Source: Parcubacteria group bacterium
GTDB lineage: Bacteria; Patescibacteriota; Minisyncoccia; Phycocordibacterales; JACNGX01
Assembly: GCA_014383885.1 (NCBI GenBank)
Contig: JACNGX010000031.1
Span: forward strand, 1 to 32,683
Reading direction: 5' to 3'
DNA length: 32,683 nucleotides
A program made the translations under genes and the position numbers. Of this stretch, positions 2,492 through 12,832 are shown piece after piece (within the stretch, counting starts at the first letter, position 1; the number at the start of each line of letters is the position of its first letter). A model generated the notes under the pieces. That model ran no database searches and was not told the origin of the DNA. It worked only from the letters and a program-made list of their open reading frames with translations.

Positions 2492-2803
2492 ATGGAAGAA
2501 ACACTTATTACTCAGACAAAACGTCTGAGAGCAAGTTTTTTAACTTGCATGAGGATTGCCCCTACCCCCATCAAAGGGGAAGACTATCTTGTCGATTTCA
2601 GGCGGCTATGCGACGTTCCTCTTGTCGTATGTGTCGATAAAAAATCTGTCTCCATTTCCAACGACAGTGGTATTGAAATAGGATACTACTTGCCGACTAA
2701 TGAAGACAGGGAGTTTTTTACGGGATTAAAAAATCCGGTAATCCATGAACATACGGGAAGTGATGGAAAGTCGATTTTCATCCTCGAAGAAGGGAAGAGG
2801 TAG
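2492..2803 (+). CDS. hypothetical protein (~103 aa)
   Basis: Only sizeable ORF in the gap, followed by a terminator; no recognisable motif; start uncertain (2432 or 2492). Confidence 0.55.
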   Translation: MEETLITQTKRLRASFLTCMRIAPTPIKGEDYLVDFRRLCDVPLVVCVDKKSVSISNDSGIEIGYYLPTNEDREFFTGLKNPVIHEHTGSDGKSIFILEEGKR

Positions 2804-2819
2804 GTCAGAGAGTGTGTAA

Positions 2820-2843
2820 GGGTCCCTCGGGACCCGTTTTTTT
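2820..2843 (+). terminator. rho-independent terminator
   Basis: GGGTCC CTCG GGACCC followed by T7. Confidence 0.7.
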
Positions 2844-2946
2844 ATTGAGAAAATATGCTATACTCTGAAAACACATGTGTGTATATAAAGTTAATTAATT
2901 AATAAAATATATAATTCTTTTGTGGAACACGATGTTTTACGGCTAA

Positions 2947-2998
2947 ACCGAGCACCACTTTTATTTTGAATGTATTCAAAATAAAAGTGGTGCTCGGT
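2947..2998. repeat. perfect 25-bp-arm palindrome upstream of tRNA-Ser
   Basis: accgagcaccacttttattttgaat-gt-attcaaaataaaagtggtgctcggt. Confidence 0.9.
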
Positions 2999-3031
2999 CG
3001 CCCGAACATTTTGAAGGGCAAAATGTTTTAG

Positions 3032-3118
3032 GGAGAGTTGCCAGAGCGGTCGAATGGGGCACCCTGCTAAGGTGTTAGGCGAGCAATCGCCTCGAGGGTT
3101 CGAATCCCTCACTCTCCG
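3032..3118 (+). tRNA. tRNA-Ser (GCU)
   Basis: GGAGAGT acceptor, GCACC CT GCT AA GGTGT anticodon arm, long variable arm, GAGGG TTCGAAT CCCTC T-arm, G discriminator. Confidence 0.96.
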
Positions 3119-3341
3119 CCCGTACAAAAATCAGCATCCTTTGGGATGCGATTTTTTGTTGGGCGGAGAGGAGGAAGCCGACTGCTCGGCTTCCGTGAGG
3201 GATTCGAAAAGGTTCTCCCATATTTTTGAGGAGCTTTGCTCCGAAAAAATGGGAAACCTGCACTGCTCCCGTAGGGAGAGAATCCCTCCGCACAAATAAT
3301 GAGCCGGACGGGAAACCGTCCGGCGATTATATTTGTGCAGG
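3116..3341 (+). repeat. structured direct repeat, copy 1 (226 bp)
   Basis: Near-identical to 10195-10418; built of nested hairpins. Confidence 0.93.
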
Positions 3342-3604
3342 TGTTTTCTGGACGAAGTTCGAACATTGTATGAACAAAATCCACAGGATTTTGATTAACT
3401 TCGCACGCGCGGAGCGCGTGGTGGCTTTGAACCAAATCGTACGCTCGGATTTTGTGGCAATGCTGACAATCCGCGCCTCGCGCTCCTTCCAGTCGCGAAC
3501 CAAAACCAAAAATTTCCTTACCTTTCCTTTTAAAACGGCGGGGGGGTGCAGGGGGGAGCCGCAAAAAATTGAAAGGAAATTTTATGGTTTTGTTTTCGTC
3601 GCTT
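3340..3604 (+). repeat. left 265-bp inverted repeat
   Basis: Reverse complement of 9932-10196; identical peptide strings appear in ORF-track entries 3226..3708+ and 9897..10391-. Confidence 0.95.
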
Positions 3605-3692
3605 ACAATTTGTTTGTGAAAATTCAAGATAACTGTTATCATTATATTGAAAGTGTAACACATCAGTATAATACTATCAAATTATTGAAACC

Positions 3693-3899
3693 ATGGCAAA
3701 AGAAATAGAAATCGGCAAAAATATAAAAAAGTACCGCAACAAACTGGGTTTGTCGCAAGAAGACTTTGCAAAAAAGTCTGATGTGAAATATACGACACTG
3801 ACGAAAATTGAAAGCGGAGTGATAAAAAAACCATCCGTTATGGTTATGGCACAAATTGCCAAAACACTTGGCGTTTCGATTGAGGATTTAATAAAATAA
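3693..3899 (+). CDS. XRE-family HTH regulator (probable RM controller-like protein)
   Basis: IGKNIKKYRNKLGLSQEDFAKKS...IESG...PS...IAKTLGVSIEDL; first gene of the RM operon. Confidence 0.9.
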   Translation: MAKEIEIGKNIKKYRNKLGLSQEDFAKKSDVKYTTLTKIESGVIKKPSVMVMAQIAKTLGVSIEDLIK

Positions 3900-3901
3900 T
3901 T

Positions 3902-4858
3902 ATGACTACACAACAAACAATTACAAAACTAGCAGACGATTTGAACATCAACCGAATTTACGCTCGACATGTTTTTCATATTGCGGACAAAGAACAATTG
4001 TTTGAAGATGCTTCTCGCATTGTGAGCGAAAAACCAAAGCCATTTGTAAAATGGGTTGGTGGAAAAAGACAACTCCTCAAGCAATTTCGCGAAATGGGAT
4101 TGTACCCACCCGACGATTTTAATCCTCTTACTAACACATACTTCGAGCCATTTGTCGGTGGAGGTGCTGTCTTTTTTGACCTACTCCCCAAGAAAGCTGA
4201 GCTTTCTGATCTCAATAACGAACTCACCACGACATACAATGTTATAAAAACTGATGTTGACTCACTGATTAAATCACTCAAAAAGCACAAGTACGAAAAA
4301 GAGTATTATCTTAAAATACGAGCAAAAAATCCAAAAAAATTATCAGATGTTGAAGTTGCTTCACGTTTTATTTTCCTAAACCGCACAGGATTCAACGGCA
4401 TGTATCGTGTTAATAGCAAAGGAGGTTTCAATGTACCGTTCGGGAAATATACAAATCCGATAATCTGCGATGAGGAAAACTTACGCAAAGTATCTAAAGT
4501 ATTACAAAAAGTCACAGTAAAAGAACAAGACTACAAAGCAGTCCTAAAAAAAGCAAAAAAGGGCGATTTTGTATATTTTGATCCACCATACTATCCAGTA
4601 AGCAGGACTGCTTCTTTTACTTCATACACAGCAGACTCGTTTCTAGAAAAAGAACAAACAGAGCTAAGGGACACATTTGTGGAACTTCACAAGCGAGGTT
4701 GTTTTGTAATGCTCTCAAATTCAGACACTCCTTTTATCAATGAACTCTATTCAGGTATTAAAGGTGTGAAAGTATCGAAAGTATCTGCTGGACGCTCGAT
4801 AAACTCAAACGCTGCAAAACGTGGAAAGATTAACGAAGTATTAGTAACTAATTATTGA
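3902..4858 (+). CDS. Dam/DpnM-type N6-adenine DNA methyltransferase (likely GATC)
   Basis: KWVGGK, EPFVGGGAV, NRTGFNGMYRVN..G.FNVPFG, DPPY, LSNS motifs of the D12 class. Confidence 0.95.
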   Translation: MTTQQTITKLADDLNINRIYARHVFHIADKEQLFEDASRIVSEKPKPFVKWVGGKRQLLKQFREMGLYPPDDFNPLTNTYFEPFVGGGAVFFDLLPKKAELSDLNNELTTTYNVIKTDVDSLIKSLKKHKYEKEYYLKIRAKNPKKLSDVEVASRFIFLNRTGFNGMYRVNSKGGFNVPFGKYTNPIICDEENLRKVSKVLQKVTVKEQDYKAVLKKAKKGDFVYFDPPYYPVSRTASFTSYTADSFLEKEQTELRDTFVELHKRGCFVMLSNSDTPFINELYSGIKGVKVSKVSAGRSINSNAAKRGKINEVLVTNY

Positions 4859-5724
4859 ATGATATGAATAAAACATTTACCGAATTGGCGGACAGTTTCA
4901 AAAGTTCCATAAAAACATGGGATTACTTTGTGAACTGGGATAAGGTATCAACAAATGCTGCCAATCTTGAAATTTCCCTCAACAAACTCAACTACCTGCT
5001 CGGAAAAGAGAACTTGAAAGACGAGTTTGCAAAACTTTATGAATCAAATCCCGACATTGTAAAAGCGTTGCCTGTTTTACTTGCGGTGCGCGAAAATAAA
5101 TTGGAGGTTTTTGATAAAGTGACAAAAGATTCGGAGTTTTTTGATTTCGCCAATAGTGAAGATGGTGCAGAAAAGTATTTTGAGTTTCTTGAAAAATCTG
5201 GGCTTGCTCGTTTGTTCCAAAAAGACGGTATCAAAAACCTTGTTGATTATGCAATGGGTGTTGAAGTTGGCTTGGACAGTAACGGTCGCAAAAATCGTGG
5301 TGGCACGCTTATGGAAGAAATTGTTGAATCGTGCATCAAAGACTTTTCGGAGAGGCTTGGTTTTGAGTATCTTGCACAGGCACGAGCAACTGAGATAAAA
5401 GCAAAATGGGGTTACGAAATAAAGGTTGATAAATCAGAACGAAGTTTTGATTTCGCCGTTTACAATCCTCAAACTAAAAATCTCAAATTGTTTGAAACAA
5501 ACTTCTACAATGGTGGTGGCTCAAAACTGAAAGCGGTTTGTGGCGAATTCCGCAGTTTGTATGACGAACTAACAGAGCAAGATATTGATTTTGTTTGGAT
5601 CACTGACGGACTCGGCTGGGAGACAACAAAACGACCACTTGAAGAAACTTTTAATCACAATAACGGGCAAGTATTTAACCTCAACATGCTCGAGGACGGT
5701 GTTTTGGAGGAATTAACATGGTAA
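4855..5724 (+). CDS. DpnII-family type II restriction endonuclease
   Basis: DYFVNW.K, LVDY..GVEVGLDSNGRKNRGG..ME, FDF, ETNFY.GGGSKL, FVWITDG.GW; start may be ATG 4864. Confidence 0.93.
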   Translation: MNDMNKTFTELADSFKSSIKTWDYFVNWDKVSTNAANLEISLNKLNYLLGKENLKDEFAKLYESNPDIVKALPVLLAVRENKLEVFDKVTKDSEFFDFANSEDGAEKYFEFLEKSGLARLFQKDGIKNLVDYAMGVEVGLDSNGRKNRGGTLMEEIVESCIKDFSERLGFEYLAQARATEIKAKWGYEIKVDKSERSFDFAVYNPQTKNLKLFETNFYNGGGSKLKAVCGEFRSLYDELTEQDIDFVWITDGLGWETTKRPLEETFNHNNGQVFNLNMLEDGVLEELTW

Positions 5725-5730
5725 AAAATA

Positions 5731-6480
5731 ATGACAAAGGAATTAAAACTACATCCCGATGAATTTGATCTAGAATGCACGACAGTGTGGGCTTTTCCTC
5801 GACGCGGAAATTGGGCAACGCATAAATCAGATTGGCGTGGCAACTGGTCGCCAGAAGTTGCACGCAATCTTATGCTTCGCTACTCAAAAGAGGGCGATGT
5901 TTTACTTGATCCAATGATTGGTGGCGGCACAACGGCAATCGAAGCAAAAATACTCAATCGCAATATCATTTGTTCGGATATAAACGATGTGGCACTCAAA
6001 CGCACGCGAGAGAGTCTGAAATTTGATACAGATAACAAAGCATGGCAAAAAGTTGTGAAACGCGATGCGCGTAACCTCGGCAAAGCTGAGAATGAAAGTA
6101 TTGACTTCATTCTCACGCACCCGCCCTACGCCGATATTATCAAATATAGCGAGGGAGAAATTGACGAAGATCTTTCAAATATTCACGAGCTAGACGAGTT
6201 TGCAGATGAAATGGAGAAAGTAGCAAAAGAATTGTATCGAGTCCTGAAACCTGGAAAATTTTGTGCAATTTTGATTGGCGACACGCGCCGCAAGAAAATG
6301 TATCAACCACTTGCGTATAAAGTGATGGATCGTTTTTTGAATGCGGGTTTTGAACTTAAAGAAGACATAATCAAACGACAATACAATTGCAAAGCTACAG
6401 GATTTTGGGTCAACAAATCAAAAGAGAGCAATTTCTTGCTCATTATGCACGAGCATTTGTTTGTGTTTCAAAAAATATGA
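5731..6480 (+). CDS. second SAM-dependent amino-methyltransferase (N6/N4-type), probable second RM methylase
   Basis: Motif I DPMIGGGTT precedes motif IV THPPY; RVLKPG; C-terminal HEHLFVF. Confidence 0.85.
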   Translation: MTKELKLHPDEFDLECTTVWAFPRRGNWATHKSDWRGNWSPEVARNLMLRYSKEGDVLLDPMIGGGTTAIEAKILNRNIICSDINDVALKRTRESLKFDTDNKAWQKVVKRDARNLGKAENESIDFILTHPPYADIIKYSEGEIDEDLSNIHELDEFADEMEKVAKELYRVLKPGKFCAILIGDTRRKKMYQPLAYKVMDRFLNAGFELKEDIIKRQYNCKATGFWVNKSKESNFLLIMHEHLFVFQKI

Positions 6481-8477
6481 TTACAAAAACTTCACAATTC
6501 AAAGAACTGTCAAAAAATAGGTTTATAATATTTTTTGGTTTTGTTGCGGTTTTTGTTTTATCCAATTACATTTTTACGGGAAGTTTGTTGCCGAGTACAG
6601 AAACAAAAGATCTGTGGTTCTATTCAGGGCTGTTTATGGCAATTTTTTCTATCTTGTTTATTGAGCCATACTATACATCTCCCAAAAATGTAATCACAAA
6701 CGCAATACCTCTTTTACTTGTTTTTCTGGCAATAAAAAACCTTTTTGAAAATCCTGTTTTTTGGTGGTTCGCAGCTTCTGTATTAATTACTTTGATTGTT
6801 GCTTCTGTGATATCTATGTCGACAGAAGACAAAAACAAAAGCCCTGAGCATTGGAAAAATAAACTTTCGGAGCTTCTCAAAAAGTGGGTTGTAATTATTG
6901 GACAGGGCAAGGTTTTATATTCGTCTGTTTTTGTGTACTTCTTACTTACATACTATTCGATACAAAGTTTTTATACTTTGTCACTTTTCATTTTATGGTT
7001 CTTTATAGTATCCATAAATCCCAAGAGTATTAGAAGCACCTTTGCGATTTCAAGAAAAGAACATGATAAAAATGCACTTGGGGAAATATTCGGAGTCCAA
7101 TCAAGAAAAATCTTCCTAGTCAAATTATTTGAAGACCGCAAGGATATTAAGAAGTTTGATATTGTGGAATTTCAATACTCCATGCAAGAATCAGATGATT
7201 TTCTTATGTCTGGGATTGTTTTCGATACTTATCTGCTCAATCAAGAGAAGTGGGCAAAAGTTTTGCAATTGGGCAGAATAGGAGAATCAAAAGTTAAATC
7301 GGACAAAAACATTGTATACAAAGTGTCAAATAAAGAACGAGTAACCGAACTTGAGAAAGAACTAAACACCGATAATTTTGTTGGTGTTGTTATAGAGAGG
7401 TCAAATATCGGAAAAATAAAGTTTGAATACTCAAAGAAACAGGATGATTTACAAGAGGGTGATTTAATCGAACTCAAGACAAACGGCAAGCGATTGTTTT
7501 ACCAGGTTGTGAATGGAGTTACTGAAAAAGAAAGTCTCGAACAACGAAATGAAACGGGTTTCATTAAAGGCGAAGCAATTCAGCTTGGGGAATGGAAAAA
7601 TAATGAGTTATCATTTCAAAAATACGGCTGGGTTCCCTCAATTAACACACCTATTTTCAAAGCGAACACTACCGATATTGAGGTGGCAAATTTTGAATAT
7701 CCTGAATACAAACTAGGCGTAATTCCAAACACTACTTTACCGTCTGTAATAAATCTTTCAGAAGCGGTTAGTTACCATATGGCAGTCTTAGGGGTTACAG
7801 GCTCTGGAAAATCTTTCATTACTCGTGAAGTAATTAGACAATTACAAAACGATACGAAAATTATTTGTGTTGATTTTACAGGTGAATGGAAAAAAGAATT
7901 CGATTCAGAAAGTATTGAGAATTTTGACACTATCGACAATGCAATAGCAAATGACAAAATATCTGTAATTGAGTTGAATGATGTAAGCAACACCACTCAA
8001 TCATTAGAAGAAACGAACAAAAAACTTCAAGAAATATTTGCATACGCAAAGGAAAATGAAGATTGCAAGAAAATATGTTTGGTTTTGGAAGAAGCTCACA
8101 CCATTGTTCCTGAAACAACATTTTTAGGCGACTATGGCGATTATAGTGCGAACAAGGCACTTGTTAATAAAATGAGCCAGATTGCATTGCAGGGCAGAAA
8201 ATATAATGTCGGTCTTTTGGTGCTTGCGCAAAGAACAGCAAATGTATCAAAAACTGTTTTAACACAATGCAATACAATTGTTTGCTTTCAAGCATTTGAT
8301 GAAACAGGATTCAATTTTTTAAGTAACTACATCGGAAAAGATTTAGTCCAAGCAATGCCAAATCTATCGCAATATCATGCAATTATTGTTGGCAAAGCCT
8401 CAAAATCAAATATTCCAATGATTGTCGATCTGACACGAGAACAAAAAGTTGAAAAAGACACAGAGGAAACAGATTAA
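6477..8477 (+). CDS. multi-pass membrane protein fused to a HerA/DUF87-type P-loop ATPase
   Basis: Several hydrophobic segments in the first ~180 aa; Walker A GVTGSGKS, Walker B LVLEEAH, GRKYNVG, QR motif; ATGA overlap with the methylase stop. Confidence 0.85.
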   Translation: MITKTSQFKELSKNRFIIFFGFVAVFVLSNYIFTGSLLPSTETKDLWFYSGLFMAIFSILFIEPYYTSPKNVITNAIPLLLVFLAIKNLFENPVFWWFAASVLITLIVASVISMSTEDKNKSPEHWKNKLSELLKKWVVIIGQGKVLYSSVFVYFLLTYYSIQSFYTLSLFILWFFIVSINPKSIRSTFAISRKEHDKNALGEIFGVQSRKIFLVKLFEDRKDIKKFDIVEFQYSMQESDDFLMSGIVFDTYLLNQEKWAKVLQLGRIGESKVKSDKNIVYKVSNKERVTELEKELNTDNFVGVVIERSNIGKIKFEYSKKQDDLQEGDLIELKTNGKRLFYQVVNGVTEKESLEQRNETGFIKGEAIQLGEWKNNELSFQKYGWVPSINTPIFKANTTDIEVANFEYPEYKLGVIPNTTLPSVINLSEAVSYHMAVLGVTGSGKSFITREVIRQLQNDTKIICVDFTGEWKKEFDSESIENFDTIDNAIANDKISVIELNDVSNTTQSLEETNKKLQEIFAYAKENEDCKKICLVLEEAHTIVPETTFLGDYGDYSANKALVNKMSQIALQGRKYNVGLLVLAQRTANVSKTVLTQCNTIVCFQAFDETGFNFLSNYIGKDLVQAMPNLSQYHAIIVGKASKSNIPMIVDLTREQKVEKDTEETD

Positions 8478-8595
8478 TTTTTTAAGGGAGTTCCGCTTGC
8501 GCGCGCATGGGTGGGTTGGGGCAAGCGCAACATGATTTGTTTGTGCTATCCGTTGTGTGATAGCACAACCATTTTCCTTTTCGGTACAATTACGG

Positions 8596-9705
8596 GGCTT
8601 TGTTGAATAATTCCCGCTGACAAACGGAATCCCCCGTTTGTATCCGGGATTTATGCAACAACGTAGCTTTCCGGCATACCAAGCATCGTTATCCGATTGA
8701 GTGCCTTCAATCGGAGGAGAAGCGAAGAACGCTGATTTTCGAATGTTCGTGCCGATACCGTATCCCCGAAGACGGTCTTGTATCGAAACATCGCGGTTTC
8801 CGACAGACTCCGACGATGATACCCGCTCTCCTCTTTCCATCCCGATCGTCCATGCTTCCTGATCTGCCTCAGATTCTCATCTCATATATGACGATCTCCT
8901 TTTGTATTCCCGTGTTTCCAGATCTTCGCGTTCTTCTGCGGAGGGATGGTGAAAGTCGATACGTCCCGTTCTTTGAGTGCTAAATAGCACTGCCTCGTAT
9001 CATAGGCCCCGTCTCCGGAGCACTGGTCGATGTTCGTCTCTTCGGGAATGTGATCCAAAAGTACCGGGAGTATGGTTCCGTCATGGACATCGTTTCTGGT
9101 CACGTCTCCGACGATGATGTCTCCCGTCTTCTCGTCGGCGTCGATATGTAGCTTCAGCCAACTCCGGCGTTTACTCCATCCGTGCTTGCGCACTTTCCAC
9201 TCTCCTTCTCCACACACCTTGATACCCGTCGAATCGACCACGAGATGCAGGTCTTCTCGAATCGGACGGATACGGATATCGACGTTCAGTGTCTTGCCTC
9301 GGAGGGAGAGCGTGGAGTAGTCAGGAGACTGGCATGAGGAATCGAGTCTTGCAAGGATATCCGACATCAACCCCTCGGTCGACCGGAGTGGGAGACGGAG
9401 GATTTGTCCTAAAGTAAGCGTCGTCTCAATGGCGATATCGCTGAACTTCTTCGGTCTTCCTCTCTTCTTGTCCCGTTCCTGCTCTTCCCACTGTTGTAGT
9501 GCCTCATCGGTAATATGGAAGATAAGTCTTCCTCGGTTTACCAATGCTTCATTATATTCCTTCCAGTTCCTGACCTTGTACGTTTTCTTCTTCCCATTCT
9601 TCTTTTTCCCTTCTTTTGCTTTTTTTGGCATAGCGTTTATATTGCTTTTGCCTTCATTATAGCGGAAGAAGAGAGAATTGGGAGGGGGAATTATTCAACA
9701 ATGCC
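8596..9705 (-). mobile_element. IS5-family (IS903 group) insertion sequence
   Basis: 20-bp TIRs ggctttgttgaataattccc / gggaattattcaacaatgcc (1 mismatch; resemble IS903 GGCTTTGTTGAATAA); 9-bp duplication tacaattac at 8585-8593 and 9706-9714. Confidence 0.92.
8651..9631 (-). pseudogene. IS903-type DDE transposase with an in-frame premature TGA at 8882-8884
   Basis: YKVRNWKEYNEALVNRG, PDYSTL, VDSTG, DGAYD; the frame continues after TGA as DENLRQIRKHGRSGWKEESGYHRRSLSETAMFRYK...LGMPESYVVA*. Confidence 0.88.
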
Positions 9706-9931
9706 TACAATTACCACAAAACTCTTATCGAAGCCGACGAGCGAGCCACGCGAACACCGAGCAGGCATTGGCGAAGTATGAGCCAGCCAGTGTGAGGTAT
9801 TTCTCGTGAGCAAGCGGACTGACGATTTACCACAGGCGTAGCGCCTCGGGTCGGCGCAAGCGACGGAGAAAAAGGCGACTTACTGCCACCGTCATGCTAT
9901 ATTTTATTTACAAGCCTTTTTTGGAGTAGTG

Positions 9932-10196
9932 AAGCGACGAAAACAAAACCATAAAATTTCCTTTCAATTTTTTGCGGCTCCCCCCTGCACCCCCCCGCCG
10001 TTTTAAAAGGAAAGGTAAGGAAATTTTTGGTTTTGGTTCGCGACTGGAAGGAGCGCGAGGCGCGGATTGTCAGCATTGCCACAAAATCCGAGCGTACGAT
10101 TTGGTTCAAAGCCACCACGCGCTCCGCGCGTGCGAAGTTAATCAAAATCCTGTGGATTTTGTTCATACAATGTTCGAACTTCGTCCAGAAAACACC
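9932..10196 (-). repeat. right 265-bp inverted repeat
   Basis: Reverse complement of 3340-3604. Confidence 0.95.
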
Positions 10197-10418
10197 GCCC
10201 GTACAAAAATCAGCATCTTTTGAGATGCGATTTTTGTTGAGCGGAGAGGAGGAAGCCGACTGCTCGGCTTCCGTGAGGGATTCGAAAAGGTTCTCCCATA
10301 TTTTTGAGGAGCTTTGCTCCGAAAAAATGGGAAACCTGCACTGCTCCCGTAGGGAGAGAATCCCTCCGCACAAATAATGAGCCGGGCGCATGTCGCCCGG
10401 CGATTATATTTGTGCAGG
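10195..10418 (+). repeat. structured direct repeat, copy 2 (224 bp)
   Basis: Matches 3116-3341 with a few mostly hairpin-preserving changes. Confidence 0.93.
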
Positions 10419-10436
10419 AGAGTGAGGGATTCGAAC
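10417..10436 (-). repeat. inverted copy of the tRNA-Ser 3' end (20 bp)
   Basis: ggagagtgagggattcgaac is the reverse complement of 3098-3117. Confidence 0.9.
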
Positions 10437-10631
10437 GGCGGAGCAGCGGGTCCCCGCTTGCGGGGCTGCGAGCCGCGTCCAGGAGTACTTAGCGGATTGC
10501 GAGCTTTAGCGAAGCAATACGCTTAGTAACTCCGGGACGAATCCCTCCGCAAAACAATGAGCCGGGCGCATGTCGCTTTTTGACTCTTGTTGCGCTATGG
10601 AAATTTTTTCAGTAATCTGTATCATATTCGT

Positions 10632-11375
10632 ATGAACACTCCTCCCTTATACGATCTCAATACAATAAAGTATGCCGTGGATGATGGTATGTGGAAACGT
10701 GCCATCGCTCTCTACGAAGGTGGGAAGGTTGTGGATTTCAAAGAAACGGTAAACGAGTACACAGCGCGTGTGCTCGGTGGCTCACCGTATCGGGTGAGTG
10801 TTTCGAATAAATCTGTAGATCGTGGAGACTGCGATTGTTATATGGGTCAGCAAGACGAATTATGTAAGCATATGATTGCCGTCGCTGTGTATGCAGTGTG
10901 TGATGGGCGTCCTCTCGCTTTGGAAGAAAAACAACACATTTCCGAGCCGGTGTATTCAGGCATTGTGGGTGATATAACGGAGGAGGAGATGAAAGAACTG
11001 AAATGGAACATCAACGCCGGTATGCGGTGTATAAAATCATACGAAGGTCCGTCACGGACATGGTTTGCGTATCAGAACAAACTTGATGAGGGGTGCGCAC
11101 GAATAGCAACTGCAGTTGCGACAGTACCGGCGAATGCAAAGACGGCAAAGCTTTTGGTCAACACGCTTTTGAAGCTTGATACGAAACTGGCAACAGGTGG
11201 GGTGGATGACTCCAATGGTACGGTTGGGCATTGTATGAGTGGGATTGTTGAGGTGCTTTTGTCATTTGCTGATGCCGACCCTATGTGTATAAAAGTATTT
11301 AAGGTACTTGAAGGGAAGAAGACATGTTTTGAATGGCAGGAGCCGCTTGTACGATATATGAAAAATCGCGCGTAA
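10632..11375 (+). CDS. SWIM zinc-finger domain protein
   Basis: CDC-x8-CKH motif after 'A.V.GGSPYRV'; C-terminal GGVDDSNG. Confidence 0.8.
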   Translation: MNTPPLYDLNTIKYAVDDGMWKRAIALYEGGKVVDFKETVNEYTARVLGGSPYRVSVSNKSVDRGDCDCYMGQQDELCKHMIAVAVYAVCDGRPLALEEKQHISEPVYSGIVGDITEEEMKELKWNINAGMRCIKSYEGPSRTWFAYQNKLDEGCARIATAVATVPANAKTAKLLVNTLLKLDTKLATGGVDDSNGTVGHCMSGIVEVLLSFADADPMCIKVFKVLEGKKTCFEWQEPLVRYMKNRA

Positions 11376-11968: not shown

Positions 11969-12832
11969 ATGAACATTAATGAGCTTGATAAAAATCAGAT
12001 TGTCCTCCTCGTTCTTTTGGTGAGTTTTGTCACGTCGATTGCAACCGGTATTGTGACGGTTACGCTCATGGATCAGGCGCCGCCGGGGATTACACAAACG
12101 ATTAACCGCGTGGTAGAGCGCACGGTGGAGACGGTTGAGAAGGTGGTGGTGGATGACTCGGGGACGACGAAGATCGAGGAAGTAATTGTGTCGGAAGAAA
12201 ATGCTATCGCCGACGCTGTTGCTGGCGCGACACCTTCACTGGTGCGTCTGTATACTAAAGTGGGAGAGACGGAGACATTTTCCGCACTTGCGTTTCCCGT
12301 ACCGGAATACGGAGTATTGGTGACGGATGCGGGTCTTGTTCTTGCCGACGGGCAGTATGACGCGCGTGATGGCGCGGGGCGCACCTATACGGCAGGTGTT
12401 ATTGCCGAAGATGGAGAGAATGGTATTGCAATCCTCCGTACATTCTCGGAAGGGGAGATGACGGTTGCCGTCCCTTTTGGGAATGAAACAAATTTCAAGC
12501 TCGGTCAGCGGGTGATTGCACTCGGAGGGAAAGAAACAAATGAAATCGCATCCGGTATGATTGTGAGCGATCCTACGCTTTCGCCGTTTTCAACAGATAT
12601 TATTCGCGGAAGCAGGTTTGTGGGCGGTATGGCACTCACTCTCGGGGGAAATGTTGCGGGTATGATACGGTCTCTTGAGGGGAGTGTTGTTATTGTCTCG
12701 CCATCGTCAATTCTTTCCGTAGTCCGCGCCACGCTTGGTATTGAAGAAGGGGGTAGTGAGCTTAGCGAAGAAACGCACGGTACGTCTCCCGAAGACGCTC
12801 TTTCTGCCGCGGTTGTTGAGGCGGTTGAGTAG
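11969..12832 (+). CDS. membrane-anchored trypsin-like (HtrA/S1C-like) protein, catalytic residues degenerate
   Basis: N-terminal TM; PSLVR, LVTD, IAIL, LGQRVIALG, ASGMI motifs; no GNSGG. Confidence 0.7.
   Translation: MNINELDKNQIVLLVLLVSFVTSIATGIVTVTLMDQAPPGITQTINRVVERTVETVEKVVVDDSGTTKIEEVIVSEENAIADAVAGATPSLVRLYTKVGETETFSALAFPVPEYGVLVTDAGLVLADGQYDARDGAGRTYTAGVIAEDGENGIAILRTFSEGEMTVAVPFGNETNFKLGQRVIALGGKETNEIASGMIVSDPTLSPFSTDIIRGSRFVGGMALTLGGNVAGMIRSLEGSVVIVSPSSILSVVRATLGIEEGGSELSEETHGTSPEDALSAAVVEAVE

Follow-up and report, generated by a model that had tools for sequence, protein, structure and literature searches.

A restriction-modification cassette behind a tRNA-Ser gene of a Parcubacteria bacterium, with two ends that are probably hybrid attachment sites of a large serine recombinase family

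Large serine recombinases (LSRs) such as the A118/LI, phiC31 and Bxb1 integrases share a characteristic domain set and act on short attP and attB attachment sites with a non-palindromic 2-bp core, and the hybrid products are not substrates again without a directionality factor. The LSRs TnpX and TndX move Tn4451 and Tn5397, whose ends are joined at a conserved dinucleotide and which pass through a circular intermediate. Archaeal viruses of the SSV type have tyrosine integrases whose gene contains attP and is split upon insertion into a tRNA gene. In recombinase-mediated cassette exchange, a laboratory method, the segment between two attPs is traded for the one between two attBs, which yields a locked product. 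Here we describe a restriction-modification (R-M) cassette of 6.9 kb, located at 3340-10196 of contig JACNGX010000031.1 from a Parcubacteria group bacterium (GCA_014383885.1; 'the window' is the whole 32,683-nt stretch that was analysed), which lies behind a tRNA-Ser(gct) gene and is bounded by perfect 265-nt inverted repeats. Both of its ends are probably tail arms of an LSR gene joined to attB-type host sites at a GG dinucleotide.

The LSR family to which these ends can be traced is like the A118/LI, phiC31 and Bxb1 integrases in domain set, in site design and in the expected inertness of hybrid products. Unlike phiC31, Bxb1 and A118, it has its attP in coding sequence, a tRNA-Ser target and a spare inverted attP, and the window differs further from the A118/LI, phiC31 and Bxb1 systems in having no enzyme and two ends of the same hybrid type. 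That is, the system works like a serine integrase, and the cassette is not a complete member because it lacks the enzyme. Tn4451 and Tn5397 are alike in using an LSR, conserved-dinucleotide ends and a circular intermediate; unlike the window family, they carry the enzyme inside, use GA, and have neither a tRNA target nor a spare inverted site. The SSV-type integrases are alike in that an attP in the integrase gene is partitioned by integration into a tRNA gene, whereas tyrosine chemistry, archaeal hosts, a mid-gene split rather than the loss of a short tail, and the lack of a spare inverted site set them apart. The cassette exchange method is alike in its two inverted att sites, and the window would be a candidate natural version of it, built into a mobile element. 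A full-text literature search found no description of this LSR family.

Two published descriptions bear on the locus. The LI integrase model as set out by Rutherford et al. (PMC3783163) places the zinc-ribbon motif at positions 16-24 of the attP half-site and 5 bp nearer the centre in attB. Among R-M units, Furuta, Abe and Kobayashi (2010; PMC2853133) name classes 'inserted with long target duplication' and 'flanked by long inverted repeats'. The cassette resembles these units, as they are described there, in being an R-M system without a mobility gene, with long inverted repeats and a long direct repeat that is single in an element-free contig; it is unlike them in that its inverted repeats can be assigned as recombinase site arms and its direct repeat as host flank between inverted attBs. 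The parts of that paper drawn on here give no mechanism for the long target duplication.

The tRNA-Ser locus and its junctions

The segments of the locus follow one another in the order tRNA(A)-CC-D1-GG-T'-cargo-T-CC-D2-GG-A', with these features:

3032..3120, plus strand: tRNA-Ser(gct) gene (ARAGORN; Rfam tRNA, 53.3 bits)
3098-3117: arm A, the 20 nt preceding the tRNA discriminator, a conserved B-type half-site (20/20 inverted match to 10417-10436)
3116-3117: CC crossover core in the tRNA end, which is junction J1, an intact attB
3116..3341, plus strand: D1, left copy of a 225-bp direct repeat, the host flank 3' of the tRNA
3340..3604, plus strand: T', left inverted repeat, 265 nt, 100% complementary to 9932-10196
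3340-3341: GG of junction J2
3342-3398: LSR tail codons in T', reading CFLDEVRTLYEQNPQDFD and then a stop
9932..10196, minus strand: T, right inverted repeat, with the tail codons on the minus strand at 10194-10138
10195-10196: CC of junction J3
10195..10418, plus strand: D2, right copy of the host flank
10417..10436, minus strand: A', a 20-bp inverted decoy of the tRNA-Ser 3' end (GG + 11 nt + TTCGAAC; 20/20), with junction J4, an unoccupied inverted attB
10437..10576, plus strand: a further hairpin unit with a tRNA-end-like arm, gaatccctCC (10539-10548)

The two arms of the inverted repeat are 6327 nt apart, and the GG/CC dinucleotide is itself part of the repeat. With a slash marking the joint, the left junction reads ...tttgtgcaGG/tgttttctggacgaagttcgaac (3333-3364) and the unoccupied copy tttgtgcaGG/agagtgagggattcgaac (10409-10436). 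On the minus strand, the right junction reads gtacgggcGG/tgttttctgg and tRNA-Ser(gct) gtacgggcGG/agagtgaggg. Only GG is common to the partners, which diverge immediately to its left and right. In the orientation of the tRNA, the four junctions compare as follows:

J1: ...cactct CC gcccgtac
J3: ...gaaaaca CC gcccgtac
J4, reverse complement: ...cactct CC tgcacaaa
J2, reverse complement: ...gaaaaca CC tgcacaaa

All four pairings of the two arms (tRNA arm A and tail arm T) with the two flanks are therefore present in one window, and a 2-bp exchange at CC/GG can be deduced from this, provided that the joints arose by reciprocal exchange. The hybrid ends break at a fixed 2-bp core that the empty site shares, and both are of the tail-arm type. 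Since each end consists of a tail arm plus host flank, the cassette is not bounded by a simple attL/attR pair.

The motif TTCGAAC starts 16 nt after GG in the repeat (tail) arm and 11 nt after GG in both the tRNA arm and the decoy, an offset of 5 bp. This offset is consistent with P-type and B-type arms recognised by a single enzyme; in the LI integrase model (PMC3783163), too, the arm motif of attB is 5 bp closer to the core than that of attP. At this locus, the displacement of about 5 bp concerns only one arm of each site. The decoy matches the tRNA over exactly 20 bp, about one attB half-site.

The same joint recurs in other genomes. A 26-nt repeat end, with one Y allowed, was scanned in a species-representative genome collection and gave at least 124 stretches, mostly Patescibacteria by record title. 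Of 121 distinct junctions obtained, the 118 with at least 45 nt of flank were used for counts. The break fell at the same position in 118/118, with GG before TGTTTT in 114 of them, and TGGCGG was the commonest hexamer before TGTTTT (75 of 118 junctions). Recurrence of the joint position is thus far beyond chance. In this collection the 26-nt ends often formed facing pairs 2-5 kb apart, and often lay at contig ends. The identical 26-nt end was also seen in genomes labelled Elusimicrobia, Verrucomicrobiota, Dehalococcoidia, a Pacearchaeota archaeon and others (L008-L131), which reflects either very wide transfer or errors of binning and labelling.

An earlier note on this DNA had quoted the junction strings above and proposed hybrid att sites that share only GG, with TTCGAAC in both partners. 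The strings are all present where the note placed them, and the proposal stood, with the 5-bp offset now added. Neither of the contrary outcomes that the note had named beforehand was seen: the joint position is constant and the cassette ends lack any target duplication, in contrast to an IS nested in this cassette, which has one of 9 bp. What the note had missed is that the cassette contains no recombinase and that its ends are of the same hybrid type.

The recombinase family: tail, target and spare site

About 16 of the flanks were coding sequence running into the repeat, with the pattern ...AEA(x)12 W R / C F L D E V R T F F E Q N P Q and a stop. Two further flanks called by the same pattern (18 called; L064 and L076) were judged false by eye. 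In L023 the coding flank forms the C-terminus of a protein of 517 aa that has the domains Resolvase, Recombinase and Zn_ribbon_recom; P0044, a 519-aa protein of the Resolvase/Recombinase/Zn-ribbon family, likewise has the full LSR domain architecture and ends in ...NWRCFLDEVRTLYEQNPQDFD. By tblastn, residues 501-519 of P0044 correspond to window positions 3339-3395 with 19/19 identity (the 18-codon tail and the preceding Arg), and P0043 matched both 3339-3395 and 10197-10141. The suggestion of the earlier note that the peptide at the repeat start resembles the C-terminal tail of recombinase genes was thus correct.

The best 120 of 7984 LSR homologues with E <= 1e-20 were sorted by their C-terminus. 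In 55, W-R was followed by ..DSNP.., the antisense T-loop; the tail was intact in 16; 18 had the DSN motif without a W-R match; and 31 were other or truncated. P0043, P0044 and P0051, which fell in the last two classes, carry the window's own tail when read by eye. In a metagenome scan with P0044, 79 loci were kept, 76 of them with a main LSR match. The match stopped exactly at residue 501 (W-R) in 44/76, with TGGCGG in 42 of these 44, and GG-N11-TTCGAA followed the break in 41/44; the tail was kept in six loci. Where at least 95 nt lay beyond residue 501 (n=40), an antisense tRNA-Ser followed in 36 (cga 12, gct 12, gga 8, tga 4), a tRNA-Trp in one, and no tRNA was called in three. These counts agree with two further suggestions of the earlier note, that the recombinase gene runs across its own att site and that the target is the acceptor/T-arm end of a tRNA or decoy copies of it, the partner of the window's left junction being the 20-bp inverted decoy. 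In L156, L171, L182, L208 and L221, recombinase relatives sit at or close to a tRNA-Asp(gtc), tRNA-Trp(cca) or tRNA-Gln(ttg) in place of tRNA-Ser; some branches appear to have changed their target.

Both ends of an intact element are visible in L014, in which the LSR gene runs to W-R and then straight into an antisense tRNA-Ser(gct). From the tRNA side, this junction reads ...cccctCC/GCCAattttc, the codons TGG CGG supplying the discriminator G and CCA of the tRNA; the far end reads ...aaaaaaca CC/gcctttcgc and is followed by a terminator. Four further genome loci have the same arrangement (L039, L045 and L074, each with a called tRNA-Ser, and L024, cut by a contig end). Because attP lies in the last codons of the enzyme, insertion removes a tail of 16-18 residues and lets the W-R codons supply G-CCA to the tRNA. 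Around the break, attP reads ...TGGCGG/TGTTTTCTGG....

A spare site accompanies the gene. That is, an inverted copy of the last 45-85 codons plus the tail was found at most 400 nt upstream of the LSR in 47/65 loci with room for it. Because this inverted C-terminal copy sits upstream of the gene, the cargo always lies between two inverted tail arms. The spare attP was used in 3/54 distinct tRNA-LSR junctions (L159, L194 and L213) and the standard one in the other 51. As read from these loci, the family carries one attP in the 3' end of its gene and another that is spare and inverted. The locus L213:8669-10587 has the order tRNA-Ser(gga)-CC-Rfrag'-promoter-LSR(1-501)-GG-antisense tRNA-Ser(gga), with two complete facing tRNA genes and no cargo; by its arrangement it is the reciprocal of the window state, a recombinase arc without cargo.

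The nearest LSR-bearing relative is L147, in which the LSR is 97% identical to P0044 and the T copy beside it 95% identical to the window repeat. Homology of L147 to the window extends 225 bp inward from the right repeat only, and in complete elements it is this side that lies next to the spare attP and the gene. This indicates that the right cassette end was once recombinase-proximal. Beyond the tail codons, T' consists of conserved sequence from 3' of the LSR gene and contains a hairpin (3498-3519/3573-3594).

No recombinase was found among the cassette ORFs (open reading frames) with Pfam profiles over 3340-10196; only the last 18 LSR codons are present, twice. Pfam profiles revealed no invertase in the window either, and a gene-body fragment of the recombinase was found neither in the window nor in the spacer of contig C49 described below. 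The source genome as a whole has a single Resolvase match, on C49, and no Recombinase-domain match.

A proposed route and its rivals

We place the probability that both cassette ends are recombinase tail arms, joined at GG to attB-type host sites by this LSR family, at about 0.78. Under this reading, 3340-10196 would be the cargo half of an element that the LSR inserts at tRNA-Ser 3' ends. The circular element would consist of two arcs between two inverted attPs, a recombinase arc with R (gene-body) arms and a cargo arc with T arms; one attP would lie within the last LSR codons (...W R / C F L D E V R T...) and the second, inverted copy just upstream of the gene. The right T arm would have been exchanged with the flank of the true tRNA-Ser(gct) site, giving T-CC-D, and the left T arm with the 20-bp inverted decoy, giving D-GG-T'. 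In an LSR exchange, the left arm of a site becomes joined to the right arm of its partner, which here would put A with R and T with the host flank. Because the enzyme would always pair the arms in this way, the two exchanges would part the cargo arc from the recombinase arc, and the cargo would be left without recombinase between two like hybrid sites, which the LSR would not be expected to recombine together.

How the present arrangement came about may be pictured as follows. The host segment A-CC-D-GG-A' would offer two inverted attBs and the element two inverted attPs. Since the second attP and the remaining attB would come to lie in direct order, whichever attP acts first, the second exchange would need no directionality factor. 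It would release a circle T'-cargo-T-CC-D-GG and leave A-CC-Rfrag'-LSR-GG-A' in the chromosome, and the window cassette plus one D would be this circle opened within D. A circle with D could enter a naive locus by one homologous crossover, by which D would be duplicated, the copies would be mosaic and the event would be reversible. This particular route, with a circle and recombination within D, seems to us possible at somewhat less than even odds. The counterparts of its predicted products are seen in L213 and in L159 and L194, where integration occurred via the spare attP. We further suggest, still more tentatively, that the spare inverted attP is a working part of a natural two-site cassette-delivery device. 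In such a device the two attPs would be used against tRNA-Ser and against another, inverted site, which could be a decoy or a further tRNA, and the recombinase would thereby split its own element in two. The recombinase arc would stay between the tRNA arms, as in L213, and the cargo arc would leave as a circle with host flank.

Words of the cassette were present in marine metagenome runs of several studies. Kilobase cargo contigs without differences occurred in the runs X6, X7 and X8, and 219-nt contigs covering 10167-10385, also without differences, bridge J3 in X6 and X7. A 426-nt contig of a fourth run (X10, depth 5.65) joins 3162 to 10241; its left part is of the D1 type, its right part of the D2 type, and the joint may lie anywhere within 145 nt common to both. 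From its sequence this contig is a candidate empty allele with a single chimeric D, and it fits either crossover entry within D or a later D1/D2 deletion. D1 and D2 are 95% identical over 226 nt, vs. complete identity of the 265-nt inverted repeats, and they differ by an indel, in the loop of one hairpin and in the stems of two others, where the changes are paired. Two further joints, 3451>9953 and 3583>10085, were set aside as repeat or word-size artefacts, having 30 nt on one side and lying inside the inverted repeat. Strand-change joints, as expected from cargo inversion, were not listed in the contigs of four runs, and contigs cannot show rare forms.

Several observations weigh against the preferred reading. 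When attP was scanned for dyad symmetry over 15 gene-flanked junctions, the GG centre did not stand out (7.5 of 25 matches, vs. 1.7-9.6 at the other centres tried), and the claim that attP is pseudo-palindromic was dropped. The flank-side halves of the two host sites are unlike in register, and 4/118 junctions have AG instead of GG. The contigs that bridge J3 reach just 28-30 nt into T, and none of the listed pieces spans J2 (98 further ones lay beyond the list). The X10 contig is equally compatible with deletion between D1 and D2 at a later time, or with a path through a repeat. When the facing pair of the window was compared with ten others, five of the ten had one gene-body and one host flank, two had gene body on both sides, and in the remaining three one flank was too short for the classing test and was read as gene body in the flank listings; the window is alone among the 11 in having both ends hybrid, the other 10 keeping at least one gene-body flank. 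Because it is unique in this respect, the double-hybrid state is either rare or an assembly join. With 61 contigs in the assembly and a 265-nt repeat that ordinary reads do not span, each junction could derive from a different strain variant, the shared cargo having linked the two. Recombination, moreover, is deduced wholly from sequence.

A first alternative is an assembly chimera, in which two real alleles would have been joined via their identical cargo and a recombinase-less cassette would not exist as such. One allele would carry the element at the decoy (tRNA-D1-GG-T'-cargo-T-CC-Rfrag-LSR-GG-A'), the other at the tRNA (tRNA-CC-LSR...T'-cargo-T-CC-D2-GG-A'). A metagenome-type genome in 61 contigs, a repeat perfect over 265 nt, an allele-like difference of 5% between D1 and D2, fragments of recombinase and T end at contig ends (C49, C21) and a gene-body flank kept in 10/10 other pairs all speak for this. 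The sole recombinase piece of the assembly, however, lies by tRNA-Ser(tga) and is 60% identical to P0044, no R-type half-site for the tRNA of the window was found in the source genome, and the cargo contigs show no differences in runs of several studies. We regard a chimera as quite unlikely, and even if it were true, both junctions would still be recombinase hybrid sites at the same GG. Another possibility, unlikely though it deserves real weight, is direct cassette exchange into a tandem array tRNA-D1-GG-A'-X-A-CC-D2-GG-A', in which the two attPs would have reacted with the inverted tRNA-like arms at either end of A'-X-A, with the cargo replacing this unit and no duplication of D by the insertion. 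Such an exchange would account for 5% D1/D2 divergence beside perfect repeats; A'-X-A units do lie behind tRNA-Ser genes in the source genome and in a same-genus genome (G002, C30, C27), and the array grammar continues to the right of 10436. On the other hand, the sole element-free contig (X10) has a single chimeric D, with no A'-X-A between two Ds, and the orthologous loci of G001 and G002 have no tandem D.

The remaining two alternatives invoke other enzymes and were rejected. In a tyrosine-integrase or homologous-recombination island, the D repeat of about 225 bp would be the attachment core and GG a mere end of homology. Direct repeats from a tRNA 3' end are typical of such islands, and a single-D contig exists; yet the cassette and the rest of the window contain no integrase (the single Phage_integrase match is on C60), and the direct repeat starts at the last two acceptor bases and comprises host flank, not tRNA body. 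Such an island also leaves unexplained why the repeat ends are a recombinase tail, why decoy and tRNA are replaced at the same dinucleotide and why the break is the same in 114/118 junctions elsewhere, and we consider it very improbable. A DDE transposon moved by the internal IS5-like transposase is hardly credible. It would suit the long terminal inverted repeats, the TGT...ACA ends and the DDE_Tnp_1 ORF inside, and is already contradicted by the flanks (...tgcaGG and CCgccc...), which show no target duplication, and by the ends, which are serine recombinase coding sequence and elsewhere adjoin the recombinase gene and a tRNA. The transposase, for its part, belongs to a nested insertion sequence (IS) of 1112 bp with its own short repeats and duplication.

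Cargo, neighbouring loci and significance

Between the recombinase arms, the cassette carries the following:

3693..3899, plus strand: XRE-type HTH regulator (Pfam HTH_3, 1.2e-17)
3902..4858, plus strand: Dam-like N6-adenine DNA methyltransferase (Pfam MethyltransfD12, 6.6e-62)
4855..5724, plus strand: DpnII-family restriction endonuclease (Pfam DpnII, 4.6e-92)
5731..6480, plus strand: second DNA methyltransferase, N6_N4_Mtase (Pfam, 2.5e-25)
6387..8477, plus strand: 696-aa ORF (putative start) with a hydrophobic N-terminal part and a HerA/DUF87-type ATPase domain (Pfam DUF87, 2.7e-14)
8594..9705, minus strand: nested IS5-like IS, 1112 bp, with imperfect terminal repeats

The nested IS is flanked by a 9-bp target duplication, TACAATTAC, at 8585-8593 and 9706-9714, and its transposase ORF (8882-9631, minus strand; DDE_Tnp_1_5, 5.8e-32) appears truncated, the frame stopping early at 8882. 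As an R-M unit, the cassette thus combines a DpnII endonuclease and two methylases with no mobility gene of its own, direct repeats of about 225 bp (D1/D2) and a single-D contig. It thereby fits the class inserted with long target duplication (PMC2853133), in which the direct repeats exceed 30 bp.

D1 is made up of a terminator hairpin, a degenerate inverted copy of the tRNA end with a hairpin insert, and a second palindromic hairpin, and D folds with z = -12.6. The unit at 10437-10576 also holds a third partial copy of the hairpin from the right end of D. Contigs of X6, X7 and X8 depart from the window directly after CC 10548 and go on as TTTTTCTCAGCTCAAAGCG..., possibly a further rearrangement at a decoy core. 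Similar hairpin units, about 90-180 nt long, follow many tRNA genes (window 3116-3341 and 10437-10576; contigs C47, C51, C2, C15, C27 and C30 of G000; L137). Their outer arms are inverted copies of the local tRNA 3' end and co-vary with the tRNA (Ser gga vs gct). An Rfam search of window 2800-10900 and of the orthologous locus in G002 returned only tRNA and sub-threshold noise, and the units therefore match no known RNA family. They may be recombination scars, landing pads or transcript-processing structures.

The orthologous tRNA locus was located in relatives by DNA comparison. In G002, of the same genus, tRNA-Ser(gct) is followed by CC-terminator-GG-A'-X-A-CC and no element, while related arrays and a decayed copy of T occur in G001. 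A search of the 30 other genomes did not recover the SWIM protein that is encoded to the right of the locus. Within the source genome, a second R-M cassette (HNH, LexA-like, methylase, endonuclease) at C27:7581-11742 adjoins tRNA-Ser(cga) c[11992-12079]; its inverted repeats of about 130 nt are homologous to the inner half (132-265) of the window repeat and lack the recombinase tail. On contig C49 (12421-13264), an LSR gene begins 151 nt beyond tRNA-Ser(tga) and is cut by the contig end after 201 residues. A tail-arm junction, ..cttggcGG/TGTTTTTTGG, was found at C21:5547-5637, 90 nt from the end of C21; this tail copy has 7 nt differences, 5 of them synonymous in the LSR frame, and the ORF downstream of the junction is a putative DNA alkylation repair (AlkD-type) gene. 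More copies of the element are probably present, unassembled, in the source genome.

The junctions described here would pin the exchange point of a very widespread, apparently undescribed LSR family to two bases, and they define both arm types, GG-N16-TTCGAAC and GG-N11-TTCGAAC. An enzyme-site pair aimed at a universally conserved tRNA end would be useful for the genetics of Patescibacteria, for which tools are lacking, and for recombinase engineering. Taken together, the window and L213 suggest that the spare inverted attP separates cargo from enzyme. This ties site-specific recombination to the R-M insertions that duplicate a long target, and it offers a mechanism both for that class and for the units between long inverted repeats; if the delivery device is real, it would explain an R-M insertion class that has had no explanation and give the spare site a purpose. 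It would also provide a route by which defence genes are left permanently behind tRNA genes in very small genomes.

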